64,000 bases of DNA from Escherichia coli (GCF_003334305.1 NZ_QOWS01000017.1), one strand, 5' to 3'; shown: positions 23,169 through 45,841, numbered from the stretch's first letter. Numbers and translations are program-made. The notes: generated by a model from the sequence alone, not told the origin.

Positions 23169-23282
23169 ATAAAACCGGGTGATGCAAAAGTAGCCATTTG
23201 ATTCACAAGGCCATTGACGCATCGCCCGGTTAGTTTTAACCTTGTCCACCGTGATTCACGTTCGTGAACATGTCCTTTCAGG

Positions 23283-23358
23283 GCCGATATAGCTCAGTTG
23301 GTAGAGCAGCGCATTCGTAATGCGAAGGTCGTAGGTTCGACTCCTATTATCGGCACCA
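23283..23358 (+). tRNA. thrW: tRNA-Thr (anticodon CGU)
   Basis: 76-nt cloverleaf GCCGATA/TATCGGC acceptor stem, anticodon loop TTCGTAA, T-arm GTAGGTTCGACTCCTAT, encoded CCA. Lies downstream of proA as in K-12. Confidence 0.95.
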
Positions 23359-23360
23359 TC
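23340..23360. repeat. att core copy 1 (thrW 3' end; attL of the P4-like element)
   Basis: actcctattatcggcaccatc is repeated exactly at 35185-35205 and imperfectly at 47262-47280. Confidence 0.85.
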
Positions 23361-23522
23361 CCCACTTCTTCAAACGTCCGTATTTGTCCGTAACCATACT
23401 GTTTTATAAAAGATTTTTTGTTCTTGTTGTCCGTATTAGTCCATAACCTTCCAGTAGAATCCAGTACTAAATGTGTATAGGATTATGTATATGTTCCTGT
23501 TCGACTTTGGAATTCTATACAC

Positions 23523-24692
23523 ATGCCCCTAAATGATATGCAGATTCGTCGTGCTAAACCTGAAGCTAAAGCCTATACACTTGGGGATGGGCAAGGGCTG
23601 TCTTTACTTGTAGAGCCAAATGGAAGTAAAAGCTGGCGATTTCGTTATCGCTATGCAGGTAAACCTAAAATGATCTCGCTTGGTGTCTATCCAACGATCA
23701 CACTTGCTGAAGCTCGTTCCCGTCGTGATGAGGCCCGAAAAATAGTGGCTGAGGGAAAAAACCCTAGTGAGGTACGAAAAGAACAAAAACTAGCATTAAG
23801 AATTCAATCTGAGAATGCATTCGAAAAGATTGCTAGAGAGTGGCATCGGATGAAGTCGTTAAAATGGTCTGCTGGGTACGCCTCGGATATTATGGAAGCG
23901 TTCCAGAATGATATTTTTCCGTATGTGGGAACGAGGCCTATAGGAGAAATTAAACCGCTAGAGCTGTTAAATGTACTGCGTAAAATTGAGAAGCGTGGCG
24001 CATTGGAGAAAATGCGAAAAGTACGGCAACGTTGCTCAGAAGTTTTTCGATATGCCATTGCTACCGGAAGAGCAGAGTTTAATCCTGCCGCAGATCTATC
24101 CAGTGCTCTCGAAGTACATAAATCAAATCATTTTCCATTCTTAAAATCAGATGAGATACCTGATTTTCTGCGTGCTTTAGATCGCTATACAGGGAGTCAA
24201 CTTGTCGTTATTGCTACGAAGTTATTGATGATCACGGGAGTAAGAACCATCGAATTACGTACCGCATTATGGTCAGAATTTGATTTGGATAACGCTATTT
24301 GGGAAATTCCTGCTGAAAGAATGAAAATGCGCAGGTCACATCTTGTTCCATTGTCGACTCAAGCGTTAGATTTACTTAATGAACTCAAGATAATGACAGG
24401 GAACTATCGTTATGTTTTTCCGGGGCGGAACGACCCGAACAAGCCTATGAGTGAGGCGAGTATAAATCAGGTTATCAAAAGGATTGGTTATGGCGGAAAA
24501 CTTACTGGACACGGATTTAGGCATATGATGTCTACATTGTTGCATGAACAAGGGTTTGATTCATTTTGGATTGAGATTCAATTAGCCCATGTAGATAAAA
24601 ATAGTATTCGTGGAACTTATAATCATGCGCTGTATTTAGAAAAGCGAAGAGATATGCTTCAGTGGTACTCTTCTTTTATAATGGAGCACTAA
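23523..24692 (+). CDS. int: P4-type tyrosine integrase
   Basis: 389 aa. N-terminal arm-binding domain (AKAYTLGDGQGLSLLVEPNGSKSWRFRYRYAGKPK). Catalytic R (TGVRTIELR), HxxR (GHGFRHMMST) and Y (IRGTYNH). Adjacent to the tRNA. Confidence 0.9.
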   Translation: MPLNDMQIRRAKPEAKAYTLGDGQGLSLLVEPNGSKSWRFRYRYAGKPKMISLGVYPTITLAEARSRRDEARKIVAEGKNPSEVRKEQKLALRIQSENAFEKIAREWHRMKSLKWSAGYASDIMEAFQNDIFPYVGTRPIGEIKPLELLNVLRKIEKRGALEKMRKVRQRCSEVFRYAIATGRAEFNPAADLSSALEVHKSNHFPFLKSDEIPDFLRALDRYTGSQLVVIATKLLMITGVRTIELRTALWSEFDLDNAIWEIPAERMKMRRSHLVPLSTQALDLLNELKIMTGNYRYVFPGRNDPNKPMSEASINQVIKRIGYGGKLTGHGFRHMMSTLLHEQGFDSFWIEIQLAHVDKNSIRGTYNHALYLEKRRDMLQWYSSFIMEH

Positions 24693-24693
24693 A

Positions 24694-26397
24694 ATGTATA
24701 TTGATAATGTGTATTTAAAAGGATTTAGGAACTATTCTGATAGTTTTGTAAAATTTAATTATTCAACTCTTATAATTGGTGGTAATGATGTTGGTAAGAC
24801 CAACTTATTGTATTCATTAAGGATTTTGTTGGATAAAAGCTTTTCGGATTTAGATTTAGAACCTAAAAATAGCGATTTTCATATTGATGCGAAAGGAAAT
24901 CAGTGTGAAGAGTTAGAAATAATAATTAATTTTCGTGAAGTAAAAGAGGATGCTGTTCTCTCTAAGTTAGCGGGGTATGTTAGTGATGATGCACAAACAT
25001 ACATCAAATATAAAGCATACAGAGCTACTCTTGATTACAAGTTATATATAGGCCACAAAGAATCTGAAATGGATGAGATTAGTGGCAGATTTTATCTTAA
25101 ATATTTAAATTTACGCTATGTGAATTCACAGCGAGACCTTGCTAAATATATATCTACAGAGAAAAAACATTTACTTCGGCTTGCTCAGGAAATGAGAAAC
25201 GAGGAGCAAGTGCGGAAGGATGAAAATACTTTGAATGAATTAACTAATTTATTAAATGATGTCAATGATAAGGTAAAAGAAATAAGCTACGTCTCGACCG
25301 CTACGGAAGAATTGAATGATGAGTTAAAGAAATTATCATATAACAATGAAAAGATTTCTGTAATGCTCGATTCTGGAGCAATTGGTGTTGATCAGTTTAT
25401 TGAAAAATTAGAGTTAAGTTCAAATACAAATGGAAAAAAGGTAATGCTTGGAGGGGACGGATTTAATAACCAAGTATTACTTGCATTATGGAAAGCCAAG
25501 AGTGTACGCGAGCACGATACTGAAAATGAAGTGGTTATATATTGTGTTGAAGAACCTGAATCACATCTTTATCCGCACCAACAGAGAAAATTATCTGAGT
25601 ATTTAATTAGTAAATTGCCGGGGCAGTCTCTAGTAACTACGCATTCTCCGCAAATTGCCATTAATTACTCACCAGATTCAATAATTAAAATTTGCTCTTA
25701 TAACGGTGAGTCTTACGCAGCAAGTGAAGGGTGTTCAGATTGCATAAGTAATGCCTGGAGTGGAATGGGATACAGGATGAGTATACTTCCTGCAGAGGCA
25801 TTCTTCGCTAATGTCGTATTCTTGGTCGAAGGGCCTTCTGAAATGTTATTTTATCAGGCCCTTGCAAAAGAGTGCCAAATTGATCTGGATTTCTTTAATA
25901 TAAGTATATTATCAGTTGATGGCGTTCAATTTGAAGTTTATAGAAAAATTCTTGATGCACTTGAGATTAAATGGGTTGCTCGTACAGATAATGATTCGTC
26001 TAAAGTTCCAAGGAAAAAAGAGTGGCAATATTCAGGTTTAAATCGAGCTTTGGCTCTATGTGGAATGGAGCCACTAAAGAATGAATTAACGGAAATATCT
26101 CAAGCTCAAAGAATAGAGAAACACAAAATTTATAAAGATAAGCTTAAACATCATAATATATTTGTTTCAATTAATGATCTCGAGGGTGATATTGGCGTTG
26201 AGTTAAGTACACAGCTGAAAGAATATGTAGGTGTTGATAATGAGGAAATTGCTGCTGATTATTTAAGAGGAAAGAAAGCAATAAGGATGCAAGAGTTCTT
26301 AGGTGAATACTCTTATGCACTGAAAAATATTTCAGACGGTGAATTAATTCAACCCCTTTTAACTGCTGTAAAATTGGCTACGGAAGAGTTGAGATGA
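24694..26397 (+). CDS. gajA: OLD-family ATPase-TOPRIM nuclease (Gabija GajA-like, class 2 OLD)
   Basis: 567 aa. Walker A GGNDVGKTN, VEEPESHLYPHQQRKL (Walker B/D-loop). C-terminal TOPRIM-like VFLVEGPSE ... SVDG ... ARTDNDS. AT-rich compared with its flanks. Overlaps the following helicase gene. Confidence 0.75.
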   Translation: MYIDNVYLKGFRNYSDSFVKFNYSTLIIGGNDVGKTNLLYSLRILLDKSFSDLDLEPKNSDFHIDAKGNQCEELEIIINFREVKEDAVLSKLAGYVSDDAQTYIKYKAYRATLDYKLYIGHKESEMDEISGRFYLKYLNLRYVNSQRDLAKYISTEKKHLLRLAQEMRNEEQVRKDENTLNELTNLLNDVNDKVKEISYVSTATEELNDELKKLSYNNEKISVMLDSGAIGVDQFIEKLELSSNTNGKKVMLGGDGFNNQVLLALWKAKSVREHDTENEVVIYCVEEPESHLYPHQQRKLSEYLISKLPGQSLVTTHSPQIAINYSPDSIIKICSYNGESYAASEGCSDCISNAWSGMGYRMSILPAEAFFANVVFLVEGPSEMLFYQALAKECQIDLDFFNISILSVDGVQFEVYRKILDALEIKWVARTDNDSSKVPRKKEWQYSGLNRALALCGMEPLKNELTEISQAQRIEKHKIYKDKLKHHNIFVSINDLEGDIGVELSTQLKEYVGVDNEEIAADYLRGKKAIRMQEFLGEYSYALKNISDGELIQPLLTAVKLATEELR

Positions 26398-28016
26398 TAG
26401 ATTTTACCCATGAGCAAAAAGCAGCAATAGATTACCCATCTAGTATGGTATTGACGGCTTGTCCTGGAAGTGGGAAAACAGCAGTAATCGTAGAGAAGAT
26501 TGTCCGTGACTTGGTGGAATGCAAGGAATATCAGGGTGTTATTGCCATATCGTATACTAACAAAGCAAGCGATGAACTGAAAAAGAGATGTTTAAAGGCT
26601 ACTCCAAATTCAAAATCAAGCTTTTTTGGGACAATAGATAAATTTTATTTGACTGAAGTTATTTTACCATTCATTAAGCAATTATGGGGAAGAGTTGATG
26701 ACTTACATGTAGTTAAGCTTAATGAGTTAGCTTCTTCTGAAAAAGATAGGCTTTCTGCTTTTTTTAATGTCGAATTCATTTGTGAAAAAATTAATGAGTA
26801 TGATTTTAAGGATATAAAGGAACTATACGCCAATGGTATTCTAATACTGGAGTTTATACCATTGCTTGCATTTTATATATTGCGTAACTCGTTAGCATGT
26901 CGCCGATATATCGCTAAAAAATACACATCTATATATATTGATGAGTATCAAGATGCTGGATGTGTTCAGCATCTTCTTTTTCTTTATCTTTTCGAACTTG
27001 GAGTAAAAGCGGTTGCAGTTGGTGATGCTGACCAATCCATATATTCATATGCGGGTAAAAGTTCGAAATACTTAATGTCTTTACTGGATGAAAAAAGTGG
27101 CTTTGCCCCTTTTAAAATAACTATAAATCATCGTTCTCATTCATCTATAGTTAATTATGCTTCTCGATTGTTGAATGAAAACTGTGACTTGTTAATAACA
27201 GATGAAATTCGTGTCTACAGAAAAACTGTTAATGGTACTCAATGTGAAATAGCTAAGTGGATTGATGCTAATATTAACAATATTAAACGAAAGTTCAATA
27301 TTTCAAAAGAAAAAGAGATAGCGATACTTACTGCAACGAATAGTTCTGTCGCTTTAGTATCCGGCCTTATAAACTCCAAAGCAAGAGCATATCTTGATGA
27401 TGAGCTGTCTGTACTCGGTGGAGATGTGTCTCTCTTATTAAAGAACCTTTTGAATTATCGATTTAATAAAACGATTACAGCACAGGCTATCATTGAAAGT
27501 TTAAATTACAAGGTGCTAGAGAGGAATGCAATAAGAAAGATGAGGGGGGTTATTAGAGATGTGAGAGATTCTAATGACAACCAACTTATTCCTGATTTAC
27601 GTAAGGCAGTAAAATTATTAATCAACGCTGATATTTCTGCTAACCATATTGATGCCATTAACTCAATCTTACACAATAAAATGATGCTAAATAATTATTT
27701 ACCAGTTAGTGATGATGAGTTACAAATAATGACTTTACATAAAGCAAAAGGACTAGAGTTCGACTTTGTTTTTCATTTGGATCTTTATGATTGGATATTA
27801 CCGCGAAGGGAATATATAAAACATTGTTTTGATGAGGTTTTTTCACATTATGAGCAATGTCTGAATCTTCATTATGTTGGAGTTACTAGGGCCAAAAAAG
27901 CCGTGGTATTAATAAATTCTACTGAGCGTTTAAATTATCAGAGTGAATTAAAAAAAGCGAAACCATCTCAGTTCTTGTCACTAAAAGGACTTGAAAGTCT
28001 GTATAAAAAAATTTAA
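26394..28016 (+). CDS. gajB: UvrD/PcrA/Rep-like SF1 helicase (Gabija GajB-like)
   Basis: 540 aa. Motif I ACPGSGKT, II IYIDEYQD, III VGDADQSIY, IV NHRS, V/VI TLHKAKGLEFDFVF and YVGVTRAKK. 4-nt overlap with the upstream OLD-like gene. Confidence 0.75.
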   Translation: MIDFTHEQKAAIDYPSSMVLTACPGSGKTAVIVEKIVRDLVECKEYQGVIAISYTNKASDELKKRCLKATPNSKSSFFGTIDKFYLTEVILPFIKQLWGRVDDLHVVKLNELASSEKDRLSAFFNVEFICEKINEYDFKDIKELYANGILILEFIPLLAFYILRNSLACRRYIAKKYTSIYIDEYQDAGCVQHLLFLYLFELGVKAVAVGDADQSIYSYAGKSSKYLMSLLDEKSGFAPFKITINHRSHSSIVNYASRLLNENCDLLITDEIRVYRKTVNGTQCEIAKWIDANINNIKRKFNISKEKEIAILTATNSSVALVSGLINSKARAYLDDELSVLGGDVSLLLKNLLNYRFNKTITAQAIIESLNYKVLERNAIRKMRGVIRDVRDSNDNQLIPDLRKAVKLLINADISANHIDAINSILHNKMMLNNYLPVSDDELQIMTLHKAKGLEFDFVFHLDLYDWILPRREYIKHCFDEVFSHYEQCLNLHYVGVTRAKKAVVLINSTERLNYQSELKKAKPSQFLSLKGLESLYKKI

Positions 28017-28035
28017 TTACGTATCTTGGCGCGCA

Positions 28036-28054
28036 GTGCTCTCCCCGCCTCGCC
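28036..28054. other. P2/P4-type cos cohesive-end sequence
   Basis: The reverse complement reads GGCGAGGCGGGGAGAGCAC, one mismatch from the recalled 19-nt P2/P4 cos end GGCGAGGCGGGGAAAGCAC. Positioned next to psu as in P4. Confidence 0.7.
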
Positions 28055-28219
28055 CGCCCGCTTTGCGGGGCGGTTTTAATGCAGTTGCACTGACACGCTC
28101 AGACCGCGCCGGGAATGGCGCGGTCTGCAGAAAATGAGTCAGGAAAACGCATGCAAAGCCATGCACCTTATCGATGCATGGCTTTTTTCAGTAAAAACAG
28201 GCGGATTTTTCGGGGAGTT

Positions 28220-28792
28220 TTACACAGACTGACGTGATGCCAGTTCTGCACTTTTACGCGAAAAAATCATGTTCTGCGCAGGGGTGAATTTTTCACGGCT
28301 GTCATCCACCGAAGCCGCGTCAGGCCTGAATCCGATGGTCGTTAAAATGTCGCTATCCTGTGCGGAATAATTAATTTTTTCCCCCTTCGCAAGCCAGGAC
28401 AGAAGGGCTTCACGCAGGGCATCTGTGGCACGCTGTATGGCACAGTTTCGGGCAATGGCCGTCAGCTCACTGTAGCCCATCAGCTCCGGTGCCAGTGCGG
28501 CCGCCAGTGCTGTGCCGTGCTGCTGCATAAAATCATTCAGCCGCTCGCGGATGCTGATGTGCTGAACGGCTTCATGCGAACGAACATAACGACCGGCGGC
28601 CTGATTCACCTGCCATTTTCTGACTTCGATAATATTGCGTAATTCGTCCAGGCGACTGACGTTTCTGCCTTCCCCGGACAGAAGCCGCAGATATTCCTGT
28701 TCGGCTGCCGCCAGTTCATTTTTGCGCTGAAGCCATGCCGCTTTGTTATTCTGGCAGACCTCAAAAGCCTGCTGTAATGACATTGTGGTCAC
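28220..28792 (-). CDS. psu: Psu (polarity suppression / capsid decoration protein)
   Basis: 190 aa, MTTMSLQQAFEVCQNNKAAWLQRKNELAAAEQEYLRLL. Position and length match P4 Psu. Confidence 0.85.
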   Translation of the reverse strand: MTTMSLQQAFEVCQNNKAAWLQRKNELAAAEQEYLRLLSGEGRNVSRLDELRNIIEVRKWQVNQAAGRYVRSHEAVQHISIRERLNDFMQQHGTALAAALAPELMGYSELTAIARNCAIQRATDALREALLSWLAKGEKINYSAQDSDILTTIGFRPDAASVDDSREKFTPAQNMIFSRKSAELASRQSV

Positions 28793-28806
28793 ACCCCGTC
28801 TCCTGA

Positions 28807-29052
28807 TTAATGGTTGAATGGTGAGCTGTAACAGCCTTTAACTTTTCGGACAACAGCCGGTGCTGTGCTTGCCGGTGCTGGTTTTTCCTCCGTGACCGGA
28901 GAACGAATCACGGCACAAATTGACTCATGCGTTTTAAATGTCGCCGAACAGTAAATATTCTGGCACTGCAGATAACTTTCTTTGACATTGTCACTCACAT
29001 ACCGGCTGGTGCGGGTATGCGCTGAATGACGACAGAAAGGGCAGCGCATCAT
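28807..29052 (-). CDS. delta: Ogr/Delta-family zinc-finger late transcription activator
   Basis: 81 aa with CPFC...CQNIYC, the four-Cys arrangement typical of Ogr/Delta. Lies between sid and psu. Confidence 0.8.
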   Translation of the reverse strand: MMRCPFCRHSAHTRTSRYVSDNVKESYLQCQNIYCSATFKTHESICAVIRSPVTEEKPAPASTAPAVVRKVKGCYSSPFNH

Positions 29053-29783
29053 GACAGCAGTCCTCTGGCCTTAAGCACTGCTCCCTGCTGGTCTATTTTG
29101 TCCTGCCACACCTTGCGCTGTGCCGGTGTGCCTGCCACCTCATAATCCATGTGCGGGAGTGTTGCCGCTGACAGTCCGGTCAGCCGGAGAACCGGCTCGC
29201 CGGTGAGGCTGATTTGCATCTGTTTTATTTTCTGTTCCAGCGATGATTTCACCTGCTGCATGACAGCTTTATCGGGTGCGACGTAGCCCTGATGGCCGGT
29301 GGTGTTGGCGAGCGGATTTTCCTGTACCAGGATACTCAGATGCATTGCCCGGACAAGCGCCTCACAGGTTTCATTCAGGGCGTGTTCCAGCTCATGCTCT
29401 GCATACAGACTCAGAAGGTGATGATGTGCCTTCCGGTAGGCGGTGGCCGTGCTGTCACACGCCCCTTTCAGGCGTTCACGTTCAAAATTCAGCACCACGG
29501 CCAGATTGTCATATTCCTGTACCAGCTCCCGGCGTGCCACGCGCTCAATGTGGCGCTGTTTCAGCTCATCGCTCAGGACACCACCGGCTGCACGAAAGGC
29601 CGTGCGCCAGTCGTCAGCGTCGTTTCCGTCGGCCTGCGCCAGCGCATTTTTTTCCTGCTCTGCCCGTTCAATGGCCGTAACGGTCTCATCCATCAGGCGG
29701 GCGTTCTCAAGATGGGCGGCTCTGGACTTTTCCAGTTGTGCCAGTGCGGGTTGCAGATATTCAGGGATAGTGTGGTCAGACAT
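29049..29783 (-). CDS. sid: Sid capsid size-determination (external scaffold) protein
   Basis: 244 aa from MSDHTIPEYLQPALAQLEK, coiled-coil rich. The longer 266-codon ORF start is unlikely because the Ogr/Delta box fits a TSS near 29810. Confidence 0.8.
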   Translation of the reverse strand: MSDHTIPEYLQPALAQLEKSRAAHLENARLMDETVTAIERAEQEKNALAQADGNDADDWRTAFRAAGGVLSDELKQRHIERVARRELVQEYDNLAVVLNFERERLKGACDSTATAYRKAHHHLLSLYAEHELEHALNETCEALVRAMHLSILVQENPLANTTGHQGYVAPDKAVMQQVKSSLEQKIKQMQISLTGEPVLRLTGLSAATLPHMDYEVAGTPAQRKVWQDKIDQQGAVLKARGLLS

Positions 29784-29855
29784 TTTCCGGCTCCTCGTCA
29801 CTTCAGGTTGAGAAAATTGTGACGTACACCGGACAACAACACGACGCATTGCAGA

Positions 29856-29873
29856 TGTGCCAGCCCTGACACA
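29856..29873. promoter_or_regulatory. TGT-N12-ACA activator box (Psid-like late promoter)
   Basis: tgtgccagccctgacaca. Its centre is about 55 bp upstream of a TSS that would lie ~27 nt before the sid ATG. This fits recalled P2/P4 late promoter architecture. Confidence 0.55.
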
Positions 29874-29952
29874 GGAGACTCATCCTCAGACCGGCAAGCC
29901 AGGAAAAGGTCGCAGGAAAAACCGGCTTACTGTTTGTTTTTTTATATTTTAC

Positions 29953-30056
29953 TGTTCACCTCTGTTCACCATAAGAAAAAAGATAAGTAATACAGTAAGT
30001 TAAAGGGTGAACAATCGCAGTAATGACTGTTCACCGTCTGTTCACCACTGTTCACC
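29953..30056. repeat. P4 ori-like iteron cluster (TGTTCACC octamers)
   Basis: Six copies: 29953, 29963, 30028, 30039 and 30049 direct, and 30006 inverted. Recalled alpha-protein type I repeats. Confidence 0.75.
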
Positions 30057-30215
30057 CGTTGATGGGCTTTTTGTGCTGTTTATTACTGTTTGTTTTTATT
30101 AATTCGCCGGGAATGAATAAGAAAAAACGATTTGTATTTCACTATAAAAATTACGAATTGCTTTAAGTGGCTTTAAATGACTTTAAGTGGAGATGAACAA
30201 AAAACACACAAGCAT

Positions 30216-30233
30216 TGTAAGGCTGCCGGAACA
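30216..30233. promoter_or_regulatory. TGT-N12-ACA activator box (PLL-like late promoter toward vis)
   Basis: tgtaaggctgccggaaca, centred ~110 bp upstream of the vis ATG and divergent from Psid. Confidence 0.5.
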
Positions 30234-30335
30234 AATCCCCCCTGTTGCGTCTGCTGAAAATATTCACAAAATAAAACGCTACCCGAAGCCGGACGGACTT
30301 ATCCGGTGCTGTATGGACATTAACGAGGTAGCCCG

Positions 30336-30602
30336 ATGCAAGCTGTTTTTTCTTCCCCGTCTCCTGCCCCTGTGACGCCACTGATGCCGCTGCCGGACAT
30401 CACACAGGAGCGTTTTTTACGTCTGCCGGAAGTGATGCACCTGTGCGGCCTGTCACGCTCGACCATCTATGAACTTATCCGTAAGGGGGAATTTCCGCCG
30501 CAGGTGAGTCTTGGCGGTAAAAATGTGGCCTGGCTGCACTCTGAAGTCACCGCATGGATGGCCGGGCGCATTGCCGGACGCAAACGGGGGTACGACGCAT
30601 GA
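30336..30602 (+). CDS. vis: Vis / AlpA-family excisionase-regulator
   Basis: 88 aa. MerR-like w[49 protein letters not shown]. Same length as P4 orf88 (Vis). Confidence 0.8.
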
Positions 30603-30637
30603 TGATGCCCGCTCTGCAAAAAGTCCCTTTTTCTGGC

Positions 30638-30667
30638 TTGCCTTTTTCCGGCATTTGCGGATATAGT
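30638..30667 (+). promoter_or_regulatory. candidate PLE-like sigma70 promoter
   Basis: TTGCCT - 18 nt - TATAGT immediately downstream of vis, where P4 places its early/immunity promoter (recalled). Confidence 0.35.
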
Positions 30668-30991
30668 TTTTCCGTTGCCGCAAAATCGGCAGCCGGGCGT
30701 GAGAACCCGTGTAACTCGAAGGCGACATATGACGCGCCATGCGTCTTTTTTTGTGTCGCAATCAACGCCACAGAGCGCCAGATTATGGTGTGGCGTGTGG
30801 TTTGCCGTGCAGGTATGATCCTGTTCGCAATCGCATGTTATGCCACTGAGTCAATGGTAGCTCAGGCGGGGCAGCCTCCGGGCTGGCCGGTATTCTTCGA
30901 GGCCGGTATTCTCACCCCCGTCTGGGCTATCGCCATCGAGCGTGAGAACTCCGGCGATAGCAGTTATTTGCTACTCGAAGGAGGCTGCCTT

Positions 30992-31189
30992 ATGGCTACA
31001 ACCCTTACCCCCTCACACCCTGAATTTGTCTTTGTGTTTGCGGCTGTCCGTCGCGCAGACCGTCATCCCCGTATCTGCATGCTTCGCACCGTCGCCGGTG
31101 ATGAACGCAGCGCCCGCCGTTCCCTTGTCCGTGACTATGTGCTCTCCCTTGCTGCCCGTCTGCCGGTGGTGGAGGTGTCCCGTGCGTAA
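30992..31189 (+). CDS. Icd-like / P4 kil-region small protein
   Basis: 65 aa [45 protein letters not shown]... with a strong RBS gaaggagg 6 nt upstream. Resembles proteins annotated as Icd-like cell-division inhibitors in P4-like elements (recalled). Confidence 0.5.
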
Positions 31190-31469
31190 TAAAAAAGCCC
31201 CTCAGACCGTCTCAGCACGTCATGACGCCCGTGAACACCTCAGCATTGAGGCTTACCATAAGCTCAACCGCGCCAGCTCCGTATCCCAGTTTGTTGGGGG
31301 TGATTTGATTCACCGTGAACTCTCCGGCCTGCATCAGCTCTACATTCCGCATATTTTCAGCTACCTGAATGAAGATATTGATTTTGTGCTGAATGAGCTG
31401 AAAGCCAAAGGCCTGTGCCGCGATTTTCTCGCCCAGCAGAAAGACCGGGGAGACAGGACGCATGTTTGA
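31182..31469 (+). CDS. eps: Epsilon-like antirepressor (derepresses P2-type helper)
   Basis: 95 aa from a GTG preceded by ggaggtg. Position directly upstream of orf151 as in P4. Confidence 0.6.
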
Positions 31470-31917
31470 TTTTCCCCAGCCCGGTGAGATTTACCGTTCT
31501 GCCGGTTTTCCCGATGTGGCCGTGGTCGGCATTCTGGAAGACGGTATTCCGTGGGAAATGCCGTACCGCTGCCCGGACATTGTCTGGAACCCGTACCGCC
31601 GTAAATTCAGTATCCTTGTGCGTATCCTCGCTGACGGACGCACCACAGACATCCCGCTGGGGCGTTTTCTGCGGGAATTTACCTGTGACCGTCCTGACCT
31701 GTTTAAACGCAGCCCCGTAAACCGGCATGCGGTACTGAAAGAAATGGCCGGAGACCCGGAATTACAGAAATGGCGGGAAAAATATCTGGATATTTACCCG
31801 CAGGCCCCTGTTCCGGTCAGCCGGGCGGCACCGGTGGCGCGGGAATGGCGGGAAATTCCCCGCACGGAGCCTGACCCGGAAATCACCCCGGATAACAGTT
31901 ACCGCAATTATCTGTAA
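31462..31917 (+). CDS. P4 orf151-like protein
   Basis: 151 aa. The start overlaps the epsilon stop. Same length and position as P4 orf151. Confidence 0.65.
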   Translation: MFDFPQPGEIYRSAGFPDVAVVGILEDGIPWEMPYRCPDIVWNPYRRKFSILVRILADGRTTDIPLGRFLREFTCDRPDLFKRSPVNRHAVLKEMAGDPELQKWREKYLDIYPQAPVPVSRAAPVAREWREIPRTEPDPEITPDNSYRNYL

Positions 31918-32052
31918 TTAAAAAACGACACCCGAAAAATTAAATGTGCGTATTCGCGCAGGGATACGCACGTCTTCAGGAGACGCAGATATGCCTTATC
32001 AGTTAATGCAACCGGCACGGAATGCAGTCATCTGTCACAGGGAGGAAAGCAA

Positions 32053-32373
32053 ATGAAAACCCCCTTACCGCCCGTCTTACGCGCAGCCCTTTACCGTCGC
32101 GCTGTCGCCTGTGCCTGGCTGACCGTGTGCGAACGTCAGCACCGCTACCCGCATCTCACCCTTGAATCACTGGAGGCGGCCATCGCCGCTGAGCTGGAAG
32201 GCTTTTATCTGCGCCAGCACGGTGAGGAAAAAGGGCGTCAGATAGCCTGTGCCCTGCTGGAAGATTTAATGGAATCCGGCCCCCTGAAGGCCGCGCCGTC
32301 GCTGTCCTTTCTCGGGCTGGTTGTGATGGATGAACTCTGTGCCCGTCACATAAAAGCGCCGGTACTGCACTGA
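32053..32373 (+). CDS. conserved P4-family hypothetical protein upstream of alpha
   Basis: 106 aa with RBS gggagga. Same position, and as far as I recall the same length, as a P4 left-operon ORF. Confidence 0.55.
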
Positions 32374-32387
32374 AGGAGAACAACACC

Positions 32388-34721
32388 ATGAAAATGAACG
32401 TAACCGCCACCGTCAGCCATGCACTCGGCCACTGGCCGCGTATTCTCCCGGCGCTGGGGATTCAGGTGCTGAAAAACCGTCATCAGCCCTGTCCGGTCTG
32501 TGGCGGGAGTGACCGCTTCCGTTTTGATGACAGGGAGGGGCGCGGCACCTGGTACTGCAATCAGTGTGGTGCCGGTGACGGCCTGAAACTGGTTGAAAAG
32601 GTGTTTGGTGTTTCCCCGTCCGACGCGGCCGCAAAGGTGGCTGCCGTGACCGGCAGCCTGCCACCGGCTGACCCGGCAGTGACGGCCGCCGCCGTTGCTG
32701 AAACAGACGCTGCCCGGAAGAACGCCGCCACACTGGCACAAACCCTGATGGCGAAAACCCGTACCGGAACCGGTAACGCCTACCTGACCCGCAAGGGCTT
32801 TCCCGGCCGGGAATGCCGGATGCTGACCGGCACACACAGAGCCGGTGGCGTGAGCTGGCGCGCCGGTGACCTTGTGGTGCCACTGTATGACGACAGCGGC
32901 GAACTGGTTAACCTTCAGTTAATCAGTGCTGACGGCCGTAAGCGCACCCTGAAAGGCGGACAGGTCAGGGGCACCTGTCACACCCTTGAAGGACAGAATC
33001 AGGCCGGAAAACGTCTGTGGATAGCGGAGGGATACGCGACCGCACTTACCGTACATCACCTGACCGGTGAAACGGTGATGGTGGCGCTTTCTTCCGTGAA
33101 CCTCCTTTCTCTGGCCAGCCTTGCCCGGCAGAAGCATCCGGCCTGTCAGATTGTCCTTGCCGCAGACCGTGACCTCAGCGGTGACGGCCAGAAAAAAGCC
33201 GCCGCAGCCGCAGATGCGTGTGAGGGCGTTGTTGCCCTGCCGCCGGTCTTCGGTGACTGGAATGATGCCTTCACGCAGTACGGCGGGGAGGCCACCCGTA
33301 AGGCCATTTACGATGCCATCCGGCCACCGGCTGAAAGCCCGTTCGACACCATGAGCGAAGCAGAGTTTTCCGCCATGAGTACCAGCGAAAAGGCCATGCG
33401 TATCTATGAGCATTACGGTGAGGCGCTCGCGGTCGATGCCAACGGCCAGCTTCTGTCTCGCTATGAAAATGGTGTCTGGAAGGTGCTGCCGCCACAGGAC
33501 TTTGCCCGGGATGTGGCCGGGCTGTTTCAGCGTCTGCGCGCGCCGTTCTCCTCCGGGAAGGTGGCCTCCGTGGTGGACACCCTGAAGCTGATTATTCCGC
33601 AGCAGGAAGCCCCCTCCCGCCGCCTGATTGGCTTTCGTAACGGTGTGCTCGACACACAGAACGGCACGTTCCACCCGCACAGTCCGTCACACTGGATGCG
33701 CACCCTGTGCGATGTGGATTTCACCCCGCCGGTGGACGGTGAAACGCTGGAGACCCACGCCCCCGCGTTCTGGCGCTGGCTTGACCGTGCCGCCGGTGGC
33801 CGTGCGGAAAAACGCGACGTGATTCTGGCCGCACTGTTTATGGTGCTGGCAAACCGCTATGACTGGCAGCTCTTTCTGGAGGTGACCGGTCCCGGCGGCA
33901 GCGGCAAAAGTATCATGGCCGAAATAGCCACCCTGCTGGCCGGGGAGGATAACGCCACGTCGGCCACCATTGAGACGCTGGAATCCCCGCGTGAACGTGC
34001 CGCGTTAACTGGCTTCTCACTGATACGCCTGCCGGACCAGGAAAAATGGAGCGGCGACGGTGCCGGACTCAAGGCCATCACCGGCGGCGATGCGGTGTCC
34101 GTTGACCCGAAATACCGGGATGCATACTCCACGCATATCCCGGCGGTGATTCTGGCCGTGAACAATAACCCGATGCGCTTCACCGACCGCAGCGGCGGCG
34201 TGTCACGCCGGCGGGTGATTATTCACTTCCCGGAACAGATAGCCCCGCAGGAGCGCGACCCGCAGCTTAAGGACAAAATCACCCGCGAGCTGGCGGTCAT
34301 CGTGCGTCACCTGATGCAGAAGTTCAGCGACCCGATGCTCGCCCGGTCACTGCTTCAGTCCCAGCAGAACTCAGACGAGGCGCTGAACATCAAACGGGAT
34401 GCCGACCCGACGTTTGATTTTATCGGCTATCTGGAAACCCTGCCGCAGACCAGCGGCATGTATATGGGGAACGCCAGTATCATCCCGCGTAATTACCGTA
34501 AATACCTCTATCACGCCTATCTGGCCTACATGGAGGCAAACGGCTACCGGAATGTACTCAGTCTGAAAATGTTCGGGCTGGGGCTGCCGGTGATGCTGAA
34601 GGAATACGGACTGAATTACGAGAAGCGCCATACCAAACAGGGGATACAGACCAACCTGACGCTGAAAGAGGAAAGCTACGGCGACTGGCTGCCAAAATGT
34701 GACGACCCTGCAACAACCTGA
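32388..34721 (+). CDS. alpha: Alpha primase-helicase-origin binding protein
   Basis: 777 aa. Zinc-ribbon CPVCGGSDRFRFDD...WYCNQCG, TOPRIM primase region, Walker A GPGGSGKS helicase domain. Confidence 0.9.
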   Translation: MKMNVTATVSHALGHWPRILPALGIQVLKNRHQPCPVCGGSDRFRFDDREGRGTWYCNQCGAGDGLKLVEKVFGVSPSDAAAKVAAVTGSLPPADPAVTAAAVAETDAARKNAATLAQTLMAKTRTGTGNAYLTRKGFPGRECRMLTGTHRAGGVSWRAGDLVVPLYDDSGELVNLQLISADGRKRTLKGGQVRGTCHTLEGQNQAGKRLWIAEGYATALTVHHLTGETVMVALSSVNLLSLASLARQKHPACQIVLAADRDLSGDGQKKAAAAADACEGVVALPPVFGDWNDAFTQYGGEATRKAIYDAIRPPAESPFDTMSEAEFSAMSTSEKAMRIYEHYGEALAVDANGQLLSRYENGVWKVLPPQDFARDVAGLFQRLRAPFSSGKVASVVDTLKLIIPQQEAPSRRLIGFRNGVLDTQNGTFHPHSPSHWMRTLCDVDFTPPVDGETLETHAPAFWRWLDRAAGGRAEKRDVILAALFMVLANRYDWQLFLEVTGPGGSGKSIMAEIATLLAGEDNATSATIETLESPRERAALTGFSLIRLPDQEKWSGDGAGLKAITGGDAVSVDPKYRDAYSTHIPAVILAVNNNPMRFTDRSGGVSRRRVIIHFPEQIAPQERDPQLKDKITRELAVIVRHLMQKFSDPMLARSLLQSQQNSDEALNIKRDADPTFDFIGYLETLPQTSGMYMGNASIIPRNYRKYLYHAYLAYMEANGYRNVLSLKMFGLGLPVMLKEYGLNYEKRHTKQGIQTNLTLKEESYGDWLPKCDDPATT

Positions 34722-34728
34722 CCCACCT

Positions 34729-34753
34729 GACCGGCATCTGCCGGTCTTTTTTT
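34729..34753 (+). terminator. intrinsic terminator after alpha
   Basis: gaccggca-tc-tgccggtc followed by T7. Confidence 0.7.
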
Positions 34754-34767
34754 ATCCCTGAATTCCC

Positions 34768-35070
34768 CGAAGGTGAACAATCCACTGTTCACCCTTCACC
34801 GTATATTCACCCGTTATCACACTGAAATTAAAAGAGAAAAACGAAAGGTGAACAGTGTGAACAATCAAATCAAAAAAAACTTTTTTCTTCCTGAGTGATT
34901 TCAGCACGGGAAATTAATCCCCTGCACAAGTCACACCGGCAGAATGCCGGAGGTGAAGAATCGAATGTTCACCCTTCACCCATTATTCACCACCTATCCA
35001 ACTGAAATAAAAGGAGAAAACAGAAAGGTGAACAGTGTGAACAGTTCTTTCGAAAAAAAATTTTTTTCTT
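34768..35070. repeat. crr-like cis replication region: two ~120-bp direct repeats with TGTTCACC/GGTGAACA octamers
   Basis: 34768-34885 and 34948-35065 align nearly base for base (ggtgaa[c/g]aatc..tgttcacccttcacc..attcacc..gaaaggtgaacagtgtgaaca). About 4.8 kb from the ori cluster, as in P4. Confidence 0.75.
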
Positions 35071-35184
35071 ATTTTTAATTGTGCGAAAAACAAGCGACAC
35101 ACGCAGTGTGTATAGATATGTGTATAGTTATATTTTTTGAATATTATAATGTATTACAAATCAATGTGTTAGCTTGTAATATTC

Positions 35185-35205
35185 ACTCCTATTATCGGCA
35201 CCATC
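35185..35205. repeat. att core copy 2 (attR of P4-like element = attL of second island)
   Basis: Exact 21-bp copy of the thrW 3' end. Confidence 0.85.
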
Positions 35206-35270
35206 AAGAAAATCAATAACTTAGCTTAACTTCTCTAAGAAATTGTATCTTCTGTTATCACTTACAAACG

Positions 35271-35675
35271 CCTATACGTTGTTATGGGCTTTGGTAGTGT
35301 AACACGTATGGGCGAGTAGTTCCCAGGCTCAACCTCGTAACAAGTTCCTTTGAAGCTGGAAGACGTGCCACCGTCTCTAAACCTTCTACCAAAACTCTTA
35401 GCAAGATGTTCCACACCTGGCGCGGTGTCCAATGATGCTACACGTCGTGAGACGTTGCAGAGGATAAACAGGCTAAATGATGGGAAGAGTTTTAAGTGCA
35501 ATAGTGGATTAAAGCCCACCTCTTCAAAACCTAACTTGATCGGGAAAGAATCAAGCTCTAGCACGGTTTCGTCCACCGGAGTACAACGGGTGCCTGATAA
35601 GAGAAGAACTGCTAAGACTTCATAGCTTTTGTGAAAAAGCCCTTTTTAGTGGATACGCCTACGGCGCTTATTTTT
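35271..35675 (+). ncRNA. candidate structured non-coding RNA (class unknown)
   Basis: GC-enriched patch in AT-rich DNA. Contains a 13-bp hairpin (35271-35311), GUGA-capped hairpins (35442-35455 and 35625-35640), 6-bp helices (35484-35525 and 35535-35555), and a weak stem plus T6 at 35656-35676. The only ORFs here are two mutually antisense ones without RBS. Confidence 0.3.
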
Positions 35676-35808
35676 TGGTATAACCATCAAAGGCGCTTTA
35701 TGGCTCCTATTGTCTTGAAAATGTATCTTTACTTGTATTGTGTTTTATGCGTAGTCTCCCTGTGTAGTATGTAACTTGTTAATTTTCATATGAATACAGA
35801 GGCACACG

Positions 35809-35967
35809 ATGAAAAACATTGCAGCTATCAAACGGAATAACCGCAAGATTCACGCTCGTAAGTTCCTGTCTACGCCAGAAGGAAAAGCCTGGCTAGAGCG
35901 TAAACAGAGAGAAAACGAAGAAAGAAAACTCCTTAGTGAGTTGAAATGGCTTAGAGAGGATTTCTGA
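35809..35967 (+). CDS. small basic hypothetical protein (52 aa)
   Basis: MKNIAAIKRNNRKIHARKFLSTPEGKAWLERKQRENEERKLLSELKWLREDF. Weak RBS (gagg). Below the size cutoff of the ORF track. Confidence 0.3.
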   Translation: MKNIAAIKRNNRKIHARKFLSTPEGKAWLERKQRENEERKLLSELKWLREDF

Positions 35968-36310
35968 AAATCTCCAGAACGCAACAGGACGCATTCTAAC
36001 GCTGTTTTCATTACTCGGTATAGGGATTATAGGTGATGTGTGTTTAATGCGTCTGTGAGCTTGTTTTGTGCCTTATTTTGCATTTTCATAATGCAGGAGA
36101 GAACACGGAAAGCCTTAAAATTAATTATTGGGGTATTTAAGGCTATTTTTAGGTTATTTAAGGGTATTAAACTTGATTTAATTGATTGAAATATAAACAG
36201 ATAATTATGTATCTTATTGATTTATAAGGTTATTTTTAAATAAAGGTAAATAAAAAATAAATAGCCATAAATAGCTATAAATACATCTAAATACCTATAT
36301 CCCTTCCCTT

Positions 36311-36694
36311 ATGGCTAGATTGCGAGAAGTGCTTAACGCGATTTTCAGCGCCCCCCGATCTGGAAAATCCAGAATCCCCAAATATCAGCAAGGAATTTTC
36401 TTGCGTAATCAACATCGTTTTTACCTATTAAATCATTACACAGAAAGCCTTTCTGTAATGTCTCTCACTAAACTTTCACTAAACACGAGAATGATCGGTT
36501 TTATGTCGGATCAGATGCTAGAAATAGCACCACGTCTCACAAGGGCTGTAAGCGATGAAACCAGTGTTTATGCGGGTGCAGGTCAAAATATAGGCCAAAA
36601 TACATTTAACATAATAAACGTAATATGCACTAAGGAACACATAGAACGCCTTGAGTTGATGTATCAGGGGAAAAGTGGTGGATTTTTTACGTAG
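36311..36694 (+). CDS. hypothetical protein
   Basis: 127-codon ORF with no recognisable domain and no clear RBS. An internal start at MSLTKLSLNTR is possible. Confidence 0.3.
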   Translation: MARLREVLNAIFSAPRSGKSRIPKYQQGIFLRNQHRFYLLNHYTESLSVMSLTKLSLNTRMIGFMSDQMLEIAPRLTRAVSDETSVYAGAGQNIGQNTFNIINVICTKEHIERLELMYQGKSGGFFT

Positions 36695-36713
36695 GAGCAC
36701 GAGAGGGCTTCTA

Positions 36714-36741
36714 TTGACTTTTGTATGCTATGAAATATAAT
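36714..36741 (+). promoter_or_regulatory. candidate sigma70 promoter
   Basis: TTGACT - 16 nt - TATAAT. It overlaps the putative start of the 36730 ORF, so one of the two calls is probably wrong. Confidence 0.35.
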
Positions 36742-36999
36742 AGAAGGTTTTTTTATGTTGATAGTGATTGCACATTAAAGATTGAAAGCAAATTTAAACA
36801 TAAATTTTCAACACGTGAAAGAGAACTTGTTCGACAAATGATAAAACGTTTATTGAGCAACAATTTTGCAGTGATGCGCTATATGCCGAATTACACAAGG
36901 CTTTGCGAAAGTGATGTAAAAGTGAAGAAAGTAAGAATTGCAACTTTAAGCTACTTTTCATTGAATTTTTTAGTATGGAATTACACAGGAATAAGTTAG
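36730..36999 (+). CDS. hypothetical protein (doubtful)
   Basis: 89-codon ORF from ATG 36730. No domain recognised. The 3' end runs into the TTACAC motif field. Confidence 0.2.
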   Translation: MKYNRRFFYVDSDCTLKIESKFKHKFSTRERELVRQMIKRLLSNNFAVMRYMPNYTRLCESDVKVKKVRIATLSYFSLNFLVWNYTGIS

Positions 37000-37084
37000 G
37001 GATATTCTATGATTTACACAGGGAATATAGGGGGATTATGGCACACACATAGAAAGACATTACACAAAGTGCTATGTGACAAAT

Positions 37085-37305
37085 GGATGTAACGAGAGGT
37101 TACATTCAGCTATCTGAAATGCTCTCTGTAAGAAAGTTGGTAGTAACGATATGTTACATAGACTAATTATTGAATGTAACGATATTACACATCGGTAGTA
37201 ACGATACGTTACATCGACTAATTATTGAATGTAACGATATTACACATCGGTAGTAACGATACGTTACATCGACAGATGATTGGATGTAACGAAAGGTTAC
37301 ACAAT
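37085..37305. repeat. iteron array: 55-bp tandem repeats carrying GTAAC-N5-GTTAC palindromes
   Basis: Units at 37139-37193 and 37194-37248 differ at 2 positions. A third partial unit runs 37249-37302, with a further palindrome atgtaacgagaggttacat at 37087-37105. That makes about 7 palindromic or half-palindromic sites. Confidence 0.85.
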
Positions 37306-37500
37306 AAGACTATATTATTTATAATACTAAATAAAACTATATTAGATTATTAATTAGATCATAATAATATTCTTTATATCTATATATATGATCTTTTGCC
37401 TTCCGGCGTTAGCTTCACTCCCTGGCAAGCAGCCTTACTCCGCTACCTTTCGGGCTACGTTGGCTGGCCCGTTCCGCTCACACCGAAAGCAAAGCGTTAC

Positions 37501-37542
37501 TTTCTTCGTGTAACTATCGTGGCGGTAACGCCCACGAAGAAA
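37501..37542. other. long hairpin with GNRA-capped inner helix inside a GC-rich patch
   Basis: tttcttcgtg (37501-37510) pairs perfectly with cacgaagaaa (37533-37542). Inner ggcg-GTAA-cgcc at 37521-37532. Confidence 0.5.
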
Positions 37543-37624
37543 TACTATTGCGCTGTGCGCAGAAGAGTAATCACCTAACCAATCATAGATTGCTTATGTG
37601 TTAACTCTCTCTACCTCTTAATTC

Positions 37625-37776
37625 CACTTCCTACATTTAATAACTCTGTTATTCTCTGTAGTTGTGTAATTACTCGAAGAGAGAGCGGCTAAAGCTCAAT
37701 TACACTCTGCTTTCCTCGTGTAAGTTCACTAAGCCTCAATACAATTTCACTTCCTACATTCTGTAGTCGTGTAATT
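37625..37776. repeat. dispersed direct repeats (cacttcctacatt and ctgtagtYgtgtaatt)
   Basis: cacttcctacatt at 37625 and 37748. ctgtagttgtgtaatt at 37656 and ctgtagtcgtgtaatt at 37761. The modules are adjacent in copy B and 18 bp apart in copy A. Confidence 0.75.
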
Positions 37777-38398
37777 GTTTTCGGTGGAAAAGCCAGAGGC
37801 GACACCGAAAGAGAATTCTGATCTTATTAATCTTATCTATCTTAGTTAATCTTCTTACTTTATCTACTTTATTATTAATAATAGCTTTATAAGCTCTGTG
37901 TAGCTCTCTGACGCAAGAAACAGCATTCAGGAAGGGAATCACCTTAGAAAAGGTGTTCTTTGCGTCATAATGTGTTTTATGAAGGATTCAGAGGTGTTTC
38001 ATAACAGGAATGTATAGAGGATATTTTAATTAATTAAAAATAAGGGGTCTAAATGCTTCTCTAACAACATTAAGCAGGGTAGGGAATGGAAACGCATTGC
38101 CTACATATAATAAGCTCACTACAGGGCTTTACAGAGCGTTTTATAAAGTGACTCTCTGTTTTATATTTACCATTACCTTTTCATATACCTAACAAATACA
38201 AAATAAGCCCCTTCAATAAGCCTCTGGCGAGCGAAACAGCCATTAGATAAGGGAATGTATTGCTTTTATCAAAATCTCGTCAGAATGCGATTGAGAGTGT
38301 TTTAGCGGATAATGAAGAATAGCACTACATAGAAGAGCACGAATTGTTAAGCAAAATCATAACATACTGAAAAAGATCAGTTTTTTTGTGAAAAGGTA

Positions 38399-38427
38399 TT
38401 GACAAACGTCTCTTTCTGTGCAATAAT
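38399..38427 (+). promoter_or_regulatory. strong sigma70 promoter P1 (extended -10)
   Basis: TTGACA - 17 nt - TGcAATAAT, followed by agg-TATTAG-aGGGG. Paralogous to the promoter at 40928. Confidence 0.65.
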
Positions 38428-38486
38428 AGGTATTAGAGGGGACAGGAATAGATTCTTATCCTCTAAATAATTAAACCAATGCACCG

Positions 38487-38526
38487 CACTTTGAAGCCCA
38501 AGAGGCTTGCAAGGTGTTTTTTCTTT
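38487..38526 (+). terminator. intrinsic terminator ending the P1 leader
   Basis: Interrupted stem (acttt-g-aagcc / ggctt-gc-aaggt) followed by gTTTTTTCTTTT. Ends 29 nt before the first ATG of the operon. Confidence 0.6.
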
Positions 38527-38554
38527 TAACCAAATCGAATAAGGAGGCTAATTA

Positions 38555-38731
38555 ATGAAATATTTCACTCCACAGGATGTAGTAGAAGCCTGGAAACGTG
38601 GTGAGATCAACCGCTTTAAAGTAAGGATGTATAGAAACACCGCTCGCCGTTGTGGTTATCCAGAGCGTGAAAAATGTTTTGACGATGCACTGAAAATTAT
38701 TGATGAACTGCGTAAAGCTGAGAAAGAATAA
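38555..38731 (+). CDS. small hypothetical protein (58 aa)
   Basis: ATG preceded by aaggagg at optimal spacing. MKYFTPQDVVEAWKRGEINRFKVRMYRNTARRCGYPEREKCFDDALKIIDELRKAEKE. Missed by the 60-aa ORF cutoff. Confidence 0.55.
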   Translation: MKYFTPQDVVEAWKRGEINRFKVRMYRNTARRCGYPEREKCFDDALKIIDELRKAEKE

Positions 38732-38753
38732 TAGACAAGAGAAGGAGAAAACT

Positions 38754-38921
38754 ATGAGCGAAACTAAGAAACCAATTCCGCGCACTTACCTTCACGTTGA
38801 CCCTGAAATCTTCAAGGTTTTATTTGCTGAAGCCAAGAAAAGGCAAATTATGGTCAGTGATTTGATGTTAGAAATCATTACTGAAGCAGCAGAGAACATC
38901 AAACAAAAAAAGGGTAAGTGA
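38754..38921 (+). CDS. ribbon-helix-helix (Arc/CopG-like) DNA-binding protein
   Basis: 55 aa from the ATG after gaaggag. The pattern PRTYLHVDPEIFKVLFAEAKKRQIMVSDLMLEIITEAAENI fits strand-helix-helix. Confidence 0.5.
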   Translation: MSETKKPIPRTYLHVDPEIFKVLFAEAKKRQIMVSDLMLEIITEAAENIKQKKGK

Positions 38922-38974
38922 TCCTCATTCACTTTAGTAGCGCATTAAGCGTGATTTATAAGGAGATGATTCTA

Positions 38975-39718: not shown

Positions 39719-39729
39719 TAAGGAGGACT

Positions 39730-40009
39730 ATGATTCAATATTTAGTAAAAAAATCAAGTAGACAGAATTCAGTGTAATGACACAGGAAAACGCATCTACG
39801 AAACACTTGCTTACCTCTATAAAGGAAAGCCAACACCGCTAAAATATAGCGATGTGTTACATCGAGCAGGGTGCTCTGAAGCTGGTTTAAAATTCTGGCT
39901 GAAACAGCTATCAAATTTCGGTGTTATTGAAATGAAAGAGCTGTCTTTTTCTACATTCAATCTCAAAAGATTAGATAAAGAAATAGAATTCATCTATTCC
40001 ACTCTCTAA
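39730..40009 (+). pseudogene. wHTH protein gene interrupted by a frameshift in an A7 run (or using programmed slippage)
   Basis: Strong RBS taaggagg then ATG 39730. The frame closes at 39777. The +1 frame stays open to 40009 and encodes ...GKRIYETLAYLYKGKPTPLKYSDVLHRAGCSEAGLKFWLKQLSNFGVIEMKE. The switch point is A7 at 39747-39753. One fewer A gives a continuous 92-aa ORF. Confidence 0.5.
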
Positions 40010-40050
40010 AATCTCTCTATGTAATTAAAATATAAAAGGAAAACATTATT

Positions 40051-40170
40051 ATGATAGTAGCTATGTATTGGTTATTGTTCTTTCTCACGTTAGAAGCATA
40101 CTTTGGGGTGTTTTCCTTTAAAAGAAAAGGAAAAGTAAATAATGGCAAAAAGAAAAAACAACGTTGTTAA
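40051..40170 (+). CDS. small hydrophobic peptide with polybasic tail (39 aa)
   Basis: MIVAMYWLLFFLTLEAYFGVFSFKRKGKVNNGKKKKQRC: one TM helix plus a K-rich tail. RBS-like aagga 10 nt upstream. Overlaps the next ORF by 29 nt. Confidence 0.3.
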   Translation: MIVAMYWLLFFLTLEAYFGVFSFKRKGKVNNGKKKKQRC

Positions 40171-40558: not shown

Positions 40559-40559
40559 T

Positions 40560-40898: not shown

Positions 40899-40927
40899 AA
40901 AAAGCAACAAAAAAGTTGTAAAATATC

Positions 40928-45834: not shown

Positions 45835-45841
45835 ATTGTGT

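Follow-up and report, generated by a model that had tools for sequence, protein, structure and literature searches.

Which genes fill the slot between the integrase gene and the cohesive-end site of a P4-like satellite in Escherichia coli, and how are they expressed and exchanged? This question is raised by a two-gene cassette at positions 24694-28016 of a 64,000-nucleotide (nt) stretch of E. coli DNA (GCF_003334305.1, NZ_QOWS01000017.1), the whole of which is called the window here. An earlier note, made from the sequence alone, had read the cassette as a Gabija-type anti-phage system, that is a GajA nuclease paired with a GajB helicase, in the int-cos accessory slot of a P4-like satellite. 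By homology it is very probable that the cassette is an intact two-gene Gabija system, consisting of a GajA nuclease-ATPase and a GajB helicase.

Identity of the cassette

The first gene, gajA (24694..26397, + strand, 567 amino acids (aa)), is predicted to encode a fusion of an ABC-type ATPase (AAA_15) with an OLD-type TOPRIM nuclease, and the second, gajB (26394..28016, + strand, 540 aa), a UvrD-like superfamily 1 (SF1) helicase. The two genes are neighbours on the same strand and overlap by 4 nt (ATGA, 26394-26397); both open reading frames (ORFs), their overlap and the motifs quoted in the earlier note were all recovered. On its ATPase side GajA carries GGNDVGKT (residues 29-36, with K35), VEEPESHL (285-292) and THSP (316-319, with the sensor H317), and on its TOPRIM side EGPSE (379-383, with E379), TDND (431-434), NDLEGD (494-499, with D495) and RGKK (525-528, with K528). 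GajB holds GSGKT (25-29), DEYQD (183-187), GDADQSIY (210-217), TLHKAKGLEF (447-456) and YVGVTRAK (494-501). Both ORFs are intact and all catalytic motifs are present.

Profile searches bore out the Gabija identity. GajA matched the PADLOC GajA profile PDLC00066 (567 positions) with 841 bits over residues 1-564, and GajB matched the PADLOC GajB profile PDLC00123 (540 positions) with 760 bits over residues 2-540; with E-values of 1e-254 and 3e-229, chance matches play no part. The Pfam domains agree with this assignment: AAA_15 (104 bits) and OLD-like_TOPRIM (65.6 bits, residues 370-434) were found on the single GajA polypeptide, UvrD-helicase (98.9 bits) and UvrD_C (69.4 bits) on GajB. Among the NCBIfam models no Gabija-specific one matched, and only RecF, MADS3 and Rep/UvrD models gave matches, all far below threshold. 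Since NCBIfam is without a Gabija model, RefSeq gives the two proteins the generic names 'ATP-dependent nuclease' and 'UvrD-helicase domain-containing protein', which is a gap in annotation and not a matter of biology.

Membership of the pair in a different OLD/ABC-ATPase defence family, for instance PARIS (AriA/AriB), Septu (PtuA/PtuB) or the retron-linked ATPase-nucleases, is hardly conceivable; the earlier note had considered such an outcome. The AAA_15 ATPase domain is common to these families, and GajA gives weak matches to the retron Ec78 ATPase and to SMC heads. The runner-up PADLOC profile for GajA was indeed AriA, but its 92 bits cover residues 1-322, the ATPase half only, and the full-length GajA score of up to 841 bits is nine times as high; for GajB the runner-up was RTasHel with 125 bits. 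The architecture points the same way, since the TOPRIM domain is fused into the GajA polypeptide, while PARIS has it on a separate DUF4435 protein, and since the partner is a UvrD-type helicase instead of an HNH or DUF4435 protein. On profile scores and architecture, PARIS and Septu are ruled out along with other OLD-family options, and the published catalogue labels the same arrangement Gabija (PMC9122126). A second alternative accepts the pair as Gabija and concerns its role: it could be a silent or decaying passenger, or could serve satellite DNA metabolism or helper exploitation instead of defence. AT-rich foreign DNA is often silenced in E. coli, and the rarity of this lineage (15 of 5,426 complete genomes) could be read in the same sense. 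We nevertheless consider such a role very unlikely, since neither ORF is broken, every catalytic motif is kept and the DNA is 99.7-100% identical across the 15 strains, which come from varied hosts. In sister elements the same slot holds defence systems, namely SIR2, DRT3, UG7 reverse-transcriptase, AAA ATPase + HNH, HEPN and ABC-three-component systems, and the sister Gabija of strain ECOR49 does defend its host (bioRxiv 10.1101/2022.08.21.504612).

The P4-like satellite and its slot

The cassette is part of a complete P4-like element integrated at thrW, as judged from att repeats, int, cos, psu, delta, sid, alpha and crr. The satellite spans 23340-35205 (11.87 kb) and is delimited by 21-nt att repeats. 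Its integration target is the tRNA-Thr (CGU) gene thrW (23283..23358, + strand; ARAGORN, and RefSeq at the identical locus of strain A7), which lies downstream of proBA. The tRNA 3' end at 23340-23360, which forms the attL core, recurs exactly as the attR core at 35185-35205 (repeat search, 100% identity). The gene int (23523..24692, + strand) encodes a tyrosine recombinase of 389 aa with the Pfam domains Arm-DNA-bind_3, Phage_int_M and Phage_integrase, and its product is 86-93% identical to the integrases of elements with other cargo. On the right side, a 19-nt cos core lies on the - strand at 28036..28054, 20 nt past the gajB stop; it was found by a sequence search with what we take to be the P2/P4 cohesive-end sequence, which it matches with one mismatch, and one such match was found where 0.02 were expected by chance.

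Beyond cos, the element continues on the - strand with psu (28220..28792; polarity suppression / capsid decoration; assigned by ORF, RefSeq product name at the identical locus and P4 position), a short single Ogr-like form of delta (28807..29052, 81 aa; ORF and RefSeq 'ogr/Delta-like zinc finger') and a sid homologue (29049..29849; an ORF of 266 aa at the position equivalent to P4 sid, for which the RefSeq start is shorter, 735 nt). RefSeq names the sid homologue 'glycoprotein 3' or 'hypothetical protein', varying by genome (L001, 21850-22584). The 81-aa delta is also present in the element of the sister Gabija lineage (L003), while P4 and the elements L002, L004, L006 and L009 have a double form of 166 aa. 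Regulatory genes follow, then the alpha primase-helicase gene (32388..34721, + strand, 777 aa; ORF and RefSeq annotation, P4 alpha being of equal length) and, between alpha and attR, a crr-like pair of 120-nt direct repeats at 34767..35066, which are spaced by 180 nt and 81% identical (repeat search; P4 layout). The order int, gajAB, cos, psu, delta, sid, regulatory genes, alpha and two crr-like repeats agrees with the P4 map.

Rousset et al. (2022; PMC9122126) defined the hotspot between int and cos/psu. The cassette takes up the whole of this slot, from the int stop at 24692 to the cos core at 28036, as the earlier note had placed it. Its description of an AT-rich block between int and cos is equally sound: over 24500-28000 the G+C fraction is 0.31-0.38, whereas the int body has 0.41-0.44 and the P4 core genes 0.51-0.64.

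Boundaries of the exchanged module

Mismatch maps of the window against two related loci, L002 (SIR2 cargo) and L004, were used to locate the crossovers. In int, the comparison with L002 gave 17 mismatches in 912 nt over 23523-24434 (98% identity) and 64 mismatches in 229 nt over 24464-24692 (72% identity), which puts the left crossover zone at 24435..24463, inside int and about 250 nt before its stop. On the right, both L002 and L004 differ from the window at many positions as far as 28030 and at few from 28031 onwards, and the sliding identity is 91-96% from about 28030, so that the edge of the variable module lies at 28017..28030 and the P4 backbone resumes at about 28031. The exchanged module, as delimited by these maps, is therefore approximately 24450-28030 and takes in the last ~80 codons of int, for which reason the G+C fraction drops already within int. 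In agreement with this, the alignment of the int proteins is near-invariant to about residue 320 and variable beyond. Each cargo lineage may thus bring its own last ~80 int codons, the catalytic His/Arg/Tyr region included. The boundaries fit an exchange of cargo by homologous recombination between P4-like elements, with the arms in int and at cos/psu.

The junction of int and its cargo

The int stop codon (TAA, 24690-24692) is followed by a single A and then by the gajA start codon (ATG) at 24694, and a Shine-Dalgarno (SD)-like GGAG for gajA lies within the last int codons (24683..24686, + strand). We surveyed this junction at ten loci with nine cargo types, all with an int of the same thrW-type family (the window, L002, L003, L004 and L006-L011). 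At all ten the first gene of the cargo runs in the direction of int, with its start between -29 and +11 nt from the int stop. The distance is +1 nt for Gabija of the window lineage, 0 nt for Gabija of the sister lineage, +2 nt for SIR2, -4 nt for an ORC/CDC6-like ATPase, -29 nt for HEPN, -8 nt for UG7 reverse transcriptase (two loci), +11 nt for AAA ATPase + HNH (Septu-like), +3 nt for an ABC-three-component system and +1 nt for DRT3, and a purine-rich SD-like motif is present in the int tail at every surveyed junction. The tight junction is not specific to Gabija.

The earlier note had concluded from this spacing that there is no room for a promoter and that gajA must be co-transcribed with int. 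The spacing itself stands (24692/24694), but the argument was incomplete, since a promoter can also lie inside the int coding sequence. Co-transcription of int and gajAB is nevertheless the most economical reading, because eight other cargo types abut int in the same way, and as a reading drawn from spacing it is plausible. In its general form, namely that in the thrW-type int family the defence cargo is arranged so as to extend the int gene at its 3' end, we hold it as a tentative proposal. Several observations count against co-transcription with int. A perfect TATAAT at 24677-24682, inside int, has a poor -35 element, and a transcript with a short leader is possible from there. Scans of 23200-28400 do not discriminate, since promoter-like sites were at chance level (19 found, 18.0 expected). 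In P4, where the slot holds gop-beta-cII, int and cII are separated by 66 nt and gop/beta lie on the opposite strand, so the operon layout is not universal in P4-like elements, and hotspot cargo was found in either orientation by Rousset et al. (PMC9122126).

P4 capsids limit genome size tightly, which favours gene packing. The 1-nt spacing could thus be a matter of satellite genome compaction, while gajAB would have a promoter of its own in the AT-rich 3' end of int that travels with the cassette and acts independently of int. The swapped module holds the last ~250 nt of int and hence has room for cassette-specific regulatory sequence, the TATAAT lies in this part, and several P4 hotspot systems were active when cloned 'with native promoters' (Rousset et al.; PMC9122126). 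Between 24014 and 24674, however, no + strand sigma-70-like site with at least 9/12 matches was found. The TATAAT has no usable -35, a transcript from it would begin past the GGAG, and the remaining eight junctions do not conserve it. What all junctions do conserve are the SD-like motifs and the co-orientation with int, as would fit translational coupling on a shared mRNA. We regard an own promoter as possible but rather doubtful. For the transcript that would run from int through gajAB, a G+C-rich hairpin with a T-run at 28054..28073 (+ strand) is a candidate terminator, from a scan that is at chance level overall (4 terminator-like sites found in 23200-28400, 3.0 expected).

If the cargo is transcribed solely from the int promoter, the expression of defence genes and the exchange of cargo would both be linked to the integrase gene, and 'native promoter' clones without the int upstream region could give false negatives. 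In a limited literature check, neither Rousset et al. (2022) nor a 2026 Nucleic Acids Research (NAR) study of P4/P2 hotspot dynamics was found to state the int-cargo operon layout or the crossover in int; the general int-cargo abutment and the crossover inside int are mildly new points. They bear on the expression and swapping of satellite cargo and on the cloning of candidate systems, and their value is modest.

Proposed mode of action

By homology, GajA and GajB of the cassette would assemble into a large complex. At normal cellular levels of nucleoside and deoxynucleoside triphosphates (NTP/dNTP), GajA's ABC ATPase domain would hold the TOPRIM nuclease off. A replicating phage would deplete the nucleotides, upon which GajA would bind and nick DNA; the nicked DNA ends would then stimulate nucleotide hydrolysis by GajB, deepen the depletion and lead to abortion of the infection. 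This model of nucleotide-depletion sensing, nicking and GajB hydrolysis was summarised by Wu et al. (bioRxiv 10.1101/2022.08.21.504612). The satellite would carry the operon to shield its host, and hence itself, from competing phages. The genes would most likely be expressed on an int transcript extended at its 3' end, with gajA translated via the GGAG within int and gajB translationally coupled to gajA through the ATGA overlap, and the cassette would have been acquired by homologous exchange with crossovers at ~24435-24463 in int and ~28030 at the cos edge. Anti-phage defence, assembly of the complex and nucleotide-inhibited nicking are thus assigned to the cassette as predictions. Caution is advised by the divergence of the window lineage, whose GajA shares 62% identity with that of the tested ECOR49 system and 28% with the Bacillus cereus prototype, and whose GajB shares 49% with the ECOR49 protein, and by the fact that the nucleotide-sensing and nicking mechanism is transferred by homology only.

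Distribution and earlier cataloguing

The window from 23200 to 28300 is 100% identical to E. coli strain A7 (NZ_CP028767), and the segment was found at 99.7-100% identity in 15 of the 5,426 complete E. coli genomes, with carriers from orangutan, chicken, cattle and human hosts. Via RefSeq at the identical locus, the encoded proteins are WP_021546002 (GajA) and WP_024236189 (GajB). Exactly this pair is contained in Table S1A of Rousset et al. (2022), which lists P4 hotspot loci, and Table S1B gives as system #6 the arrangement 'UvrD_C/AAA_19 | AAA_15' with 153 occurrences and the remark 'Gabija (Doron et al., 2018)' (PMC9122126). The Gabija call, the location in the P4 hotspot and both accessions are therefore already published, a sister system is experimentally validated, and nothing of this is new. 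The sister Gabija lineage occupies the same slot in 18 further complete genomes, and its proteins are 62% (GajA) and 49% (GajB) identical to those of the window.

In four genomes (H12, H13, H15 and H16) the match to the satellite begins at window position 23313, inside the tRNA gene, without the upstream proA flank, which suggests tandem or secondary integration contexts. The copy in H13 is broken by IS1A.

The neighbouring element

A second AT-rich integrative element follows directly after the satellite attR (window 35206-47206). It has almost no ORFs of at least 90 aa between 35.6 and 38.9 kb, and beyond this region ORFs resembling a replication initiator (38918-39718) and a major head protein (41838-42869), a 612-aa ORF matching a tape-measure PHROG (43174-45012), a 237-aa ORF resembling a tail fibre or endolysin, and an integrase gene (45842-47206, - strand). 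This element could be a further satellite or a defective prophage that sits in tandem at thrW. Upstream of its Rep-like ORF, the region 37084-37303 contains three 55-nt tandem repeats (37139-37303), preceded by a related 21-nt motif at 37084. Each unit has inverted GTAACG...CGTTAC motifs, and in sequence the repeats look like the iterons of a replication origin.

Comparison with known systems

Schiltz et al. reportedly noted in 2019 that class 2 OLD genes neighbour a gene for a UvrD/PcrA/Rep-like helicase. The cassette has this layout, with an OLD-family ATPase-TOPRIM gene in tandem with such a helicase gene, and the C-terminal regions of the class 2 OLD structures 6NK8 (Burkholderia) and 6NJV (Xanthomonas) match the TOPRIM part of GajA (residues 364-436, E ~1e-5). 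Compared with the GajA structures, however, they are far more distant, and the work on them dealt with catalytic regions in isolation, with no defence phenotype. Among solved structures, the GajA (E = 2.6e-34) and GajB (E = 1.1e-35) chains of B. cereus are the nearest, and the proteins of B. cereus VD045 (PDB 8SM3, 8J4T, 8TK0, 8JQB and others) have the same domain order as those of the window. Between the two GajA proteins 139 of 491 aligned positions are identical (28%), and the Walker A Lys, the THSP sensor His, the EGPSE TOPRIM Glu, the DxD/DND motif and the equivalent of D511 line up. The TOPRIM catalytic residues, whose absence on alignment would have spoken against the reading of the earlier note, are thus present: E379 has the same number in both proteins, and D495 of the window protein aligns with D511 of B. 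cereus GajA. For GajB the helicase motifs align as well. A GajB about 45 aa longer than that of Bacillus had been noticed earlier and is confirmed, since the B. cereus chains have 493-499 aa and window GajB, with 540 aa, is ~46 aa longer; the extra residues lie mainly near query positions 100-160 and 465-490 and in the C-terminal tail, yet 540 is the normal length for the subfamily profile. The B. cereus system comes from a different host and a different mobile-element context, and a GajA tetramer with bound GajB subunits is known for it (bioRxiv 10.1101/2022.08.21.504612).

Phage P4 (NC_001609) shares its backbone with the satellite, in the order int, hotspot, cos, psu, delta, sid and alpha (777 aa), and also has a pair of 120-nt crr repeats. 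The P4 repeats, located beside alpha at 4291 and 4471, are likewise spaced by 180 nt. Apart from the gop-beta-cII cargo, P4 differs in its int (440 aa, compared to 389 aa for the thrW-targeting family of the window) and in its delta (166 aa compared to 81 aa). Among the PLSDB plasmids, a tblastn search with GajA found its best matches on Pantoea and Erwinia plasmids (59%) and none of at least 60%; because of this, the Gabija borne on E. coli plasmids is assigned by sequence to a different subfamily.

An experimentally tested relative is the Gabija that Wu et al. cloned from E. coli ECOR49, which gave 1e5-fold protection against lambda, also blocked other phages and showed abortive-infection behaviour (bioRxiv 10.1101/2022.08.21.504612). 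It belongs to the same PADLOC subfamily as the cassette and has nearly the same lengths (566/540 aa compared to 567/540 aa), but differs in 62% GajA and 49% GajB identity and in having been expressed from pBAD and not in its native context. Defence by the ECOR49 system was abolished by mutating GajA K35, H317, E379, D495 or K528, and likewise by mutating the GajB Walker A motif or D183/E184 (bioRxiv 10.1101/2022.08.21.504612). All five GajA positions are kept in the window at the same numbering, and window GajB keeps the Walker A Lys/Thr and D183/E184. The forward primer used for ECOR49 matches the start of sister-lineage gajA with one mismatch, and the reverse primer matches the P4 backbone of the window beside psu exactly (28202-28219); in locus L003 the reverse primer had no match even with three mismatches allowed. 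Since the two primers fit the sister gajA start and the window backbone, the tested ECOR49 Gabija very probably came from the same P4 satellite slot.

System #6 of Rousset et al. is the nearest counterpart overall, with the same slot from int to psu/cos, the same two-gene architecture and the same protein pair as the window. Its representative in Table S1B is of the sister lineage (MRIETVYIKGF...), 62%/49% identical to the window proteins, and there is no other difference of substance. The cassette described here is a clean and complete example of satellite-borne Gabija from a lineage distinct from the tested ECOR49 system, and at 62%/49% identity it may differ from ECOR49 Gabija in phage range and in sensitivity to Gad1/Gad2-type inhibitors.

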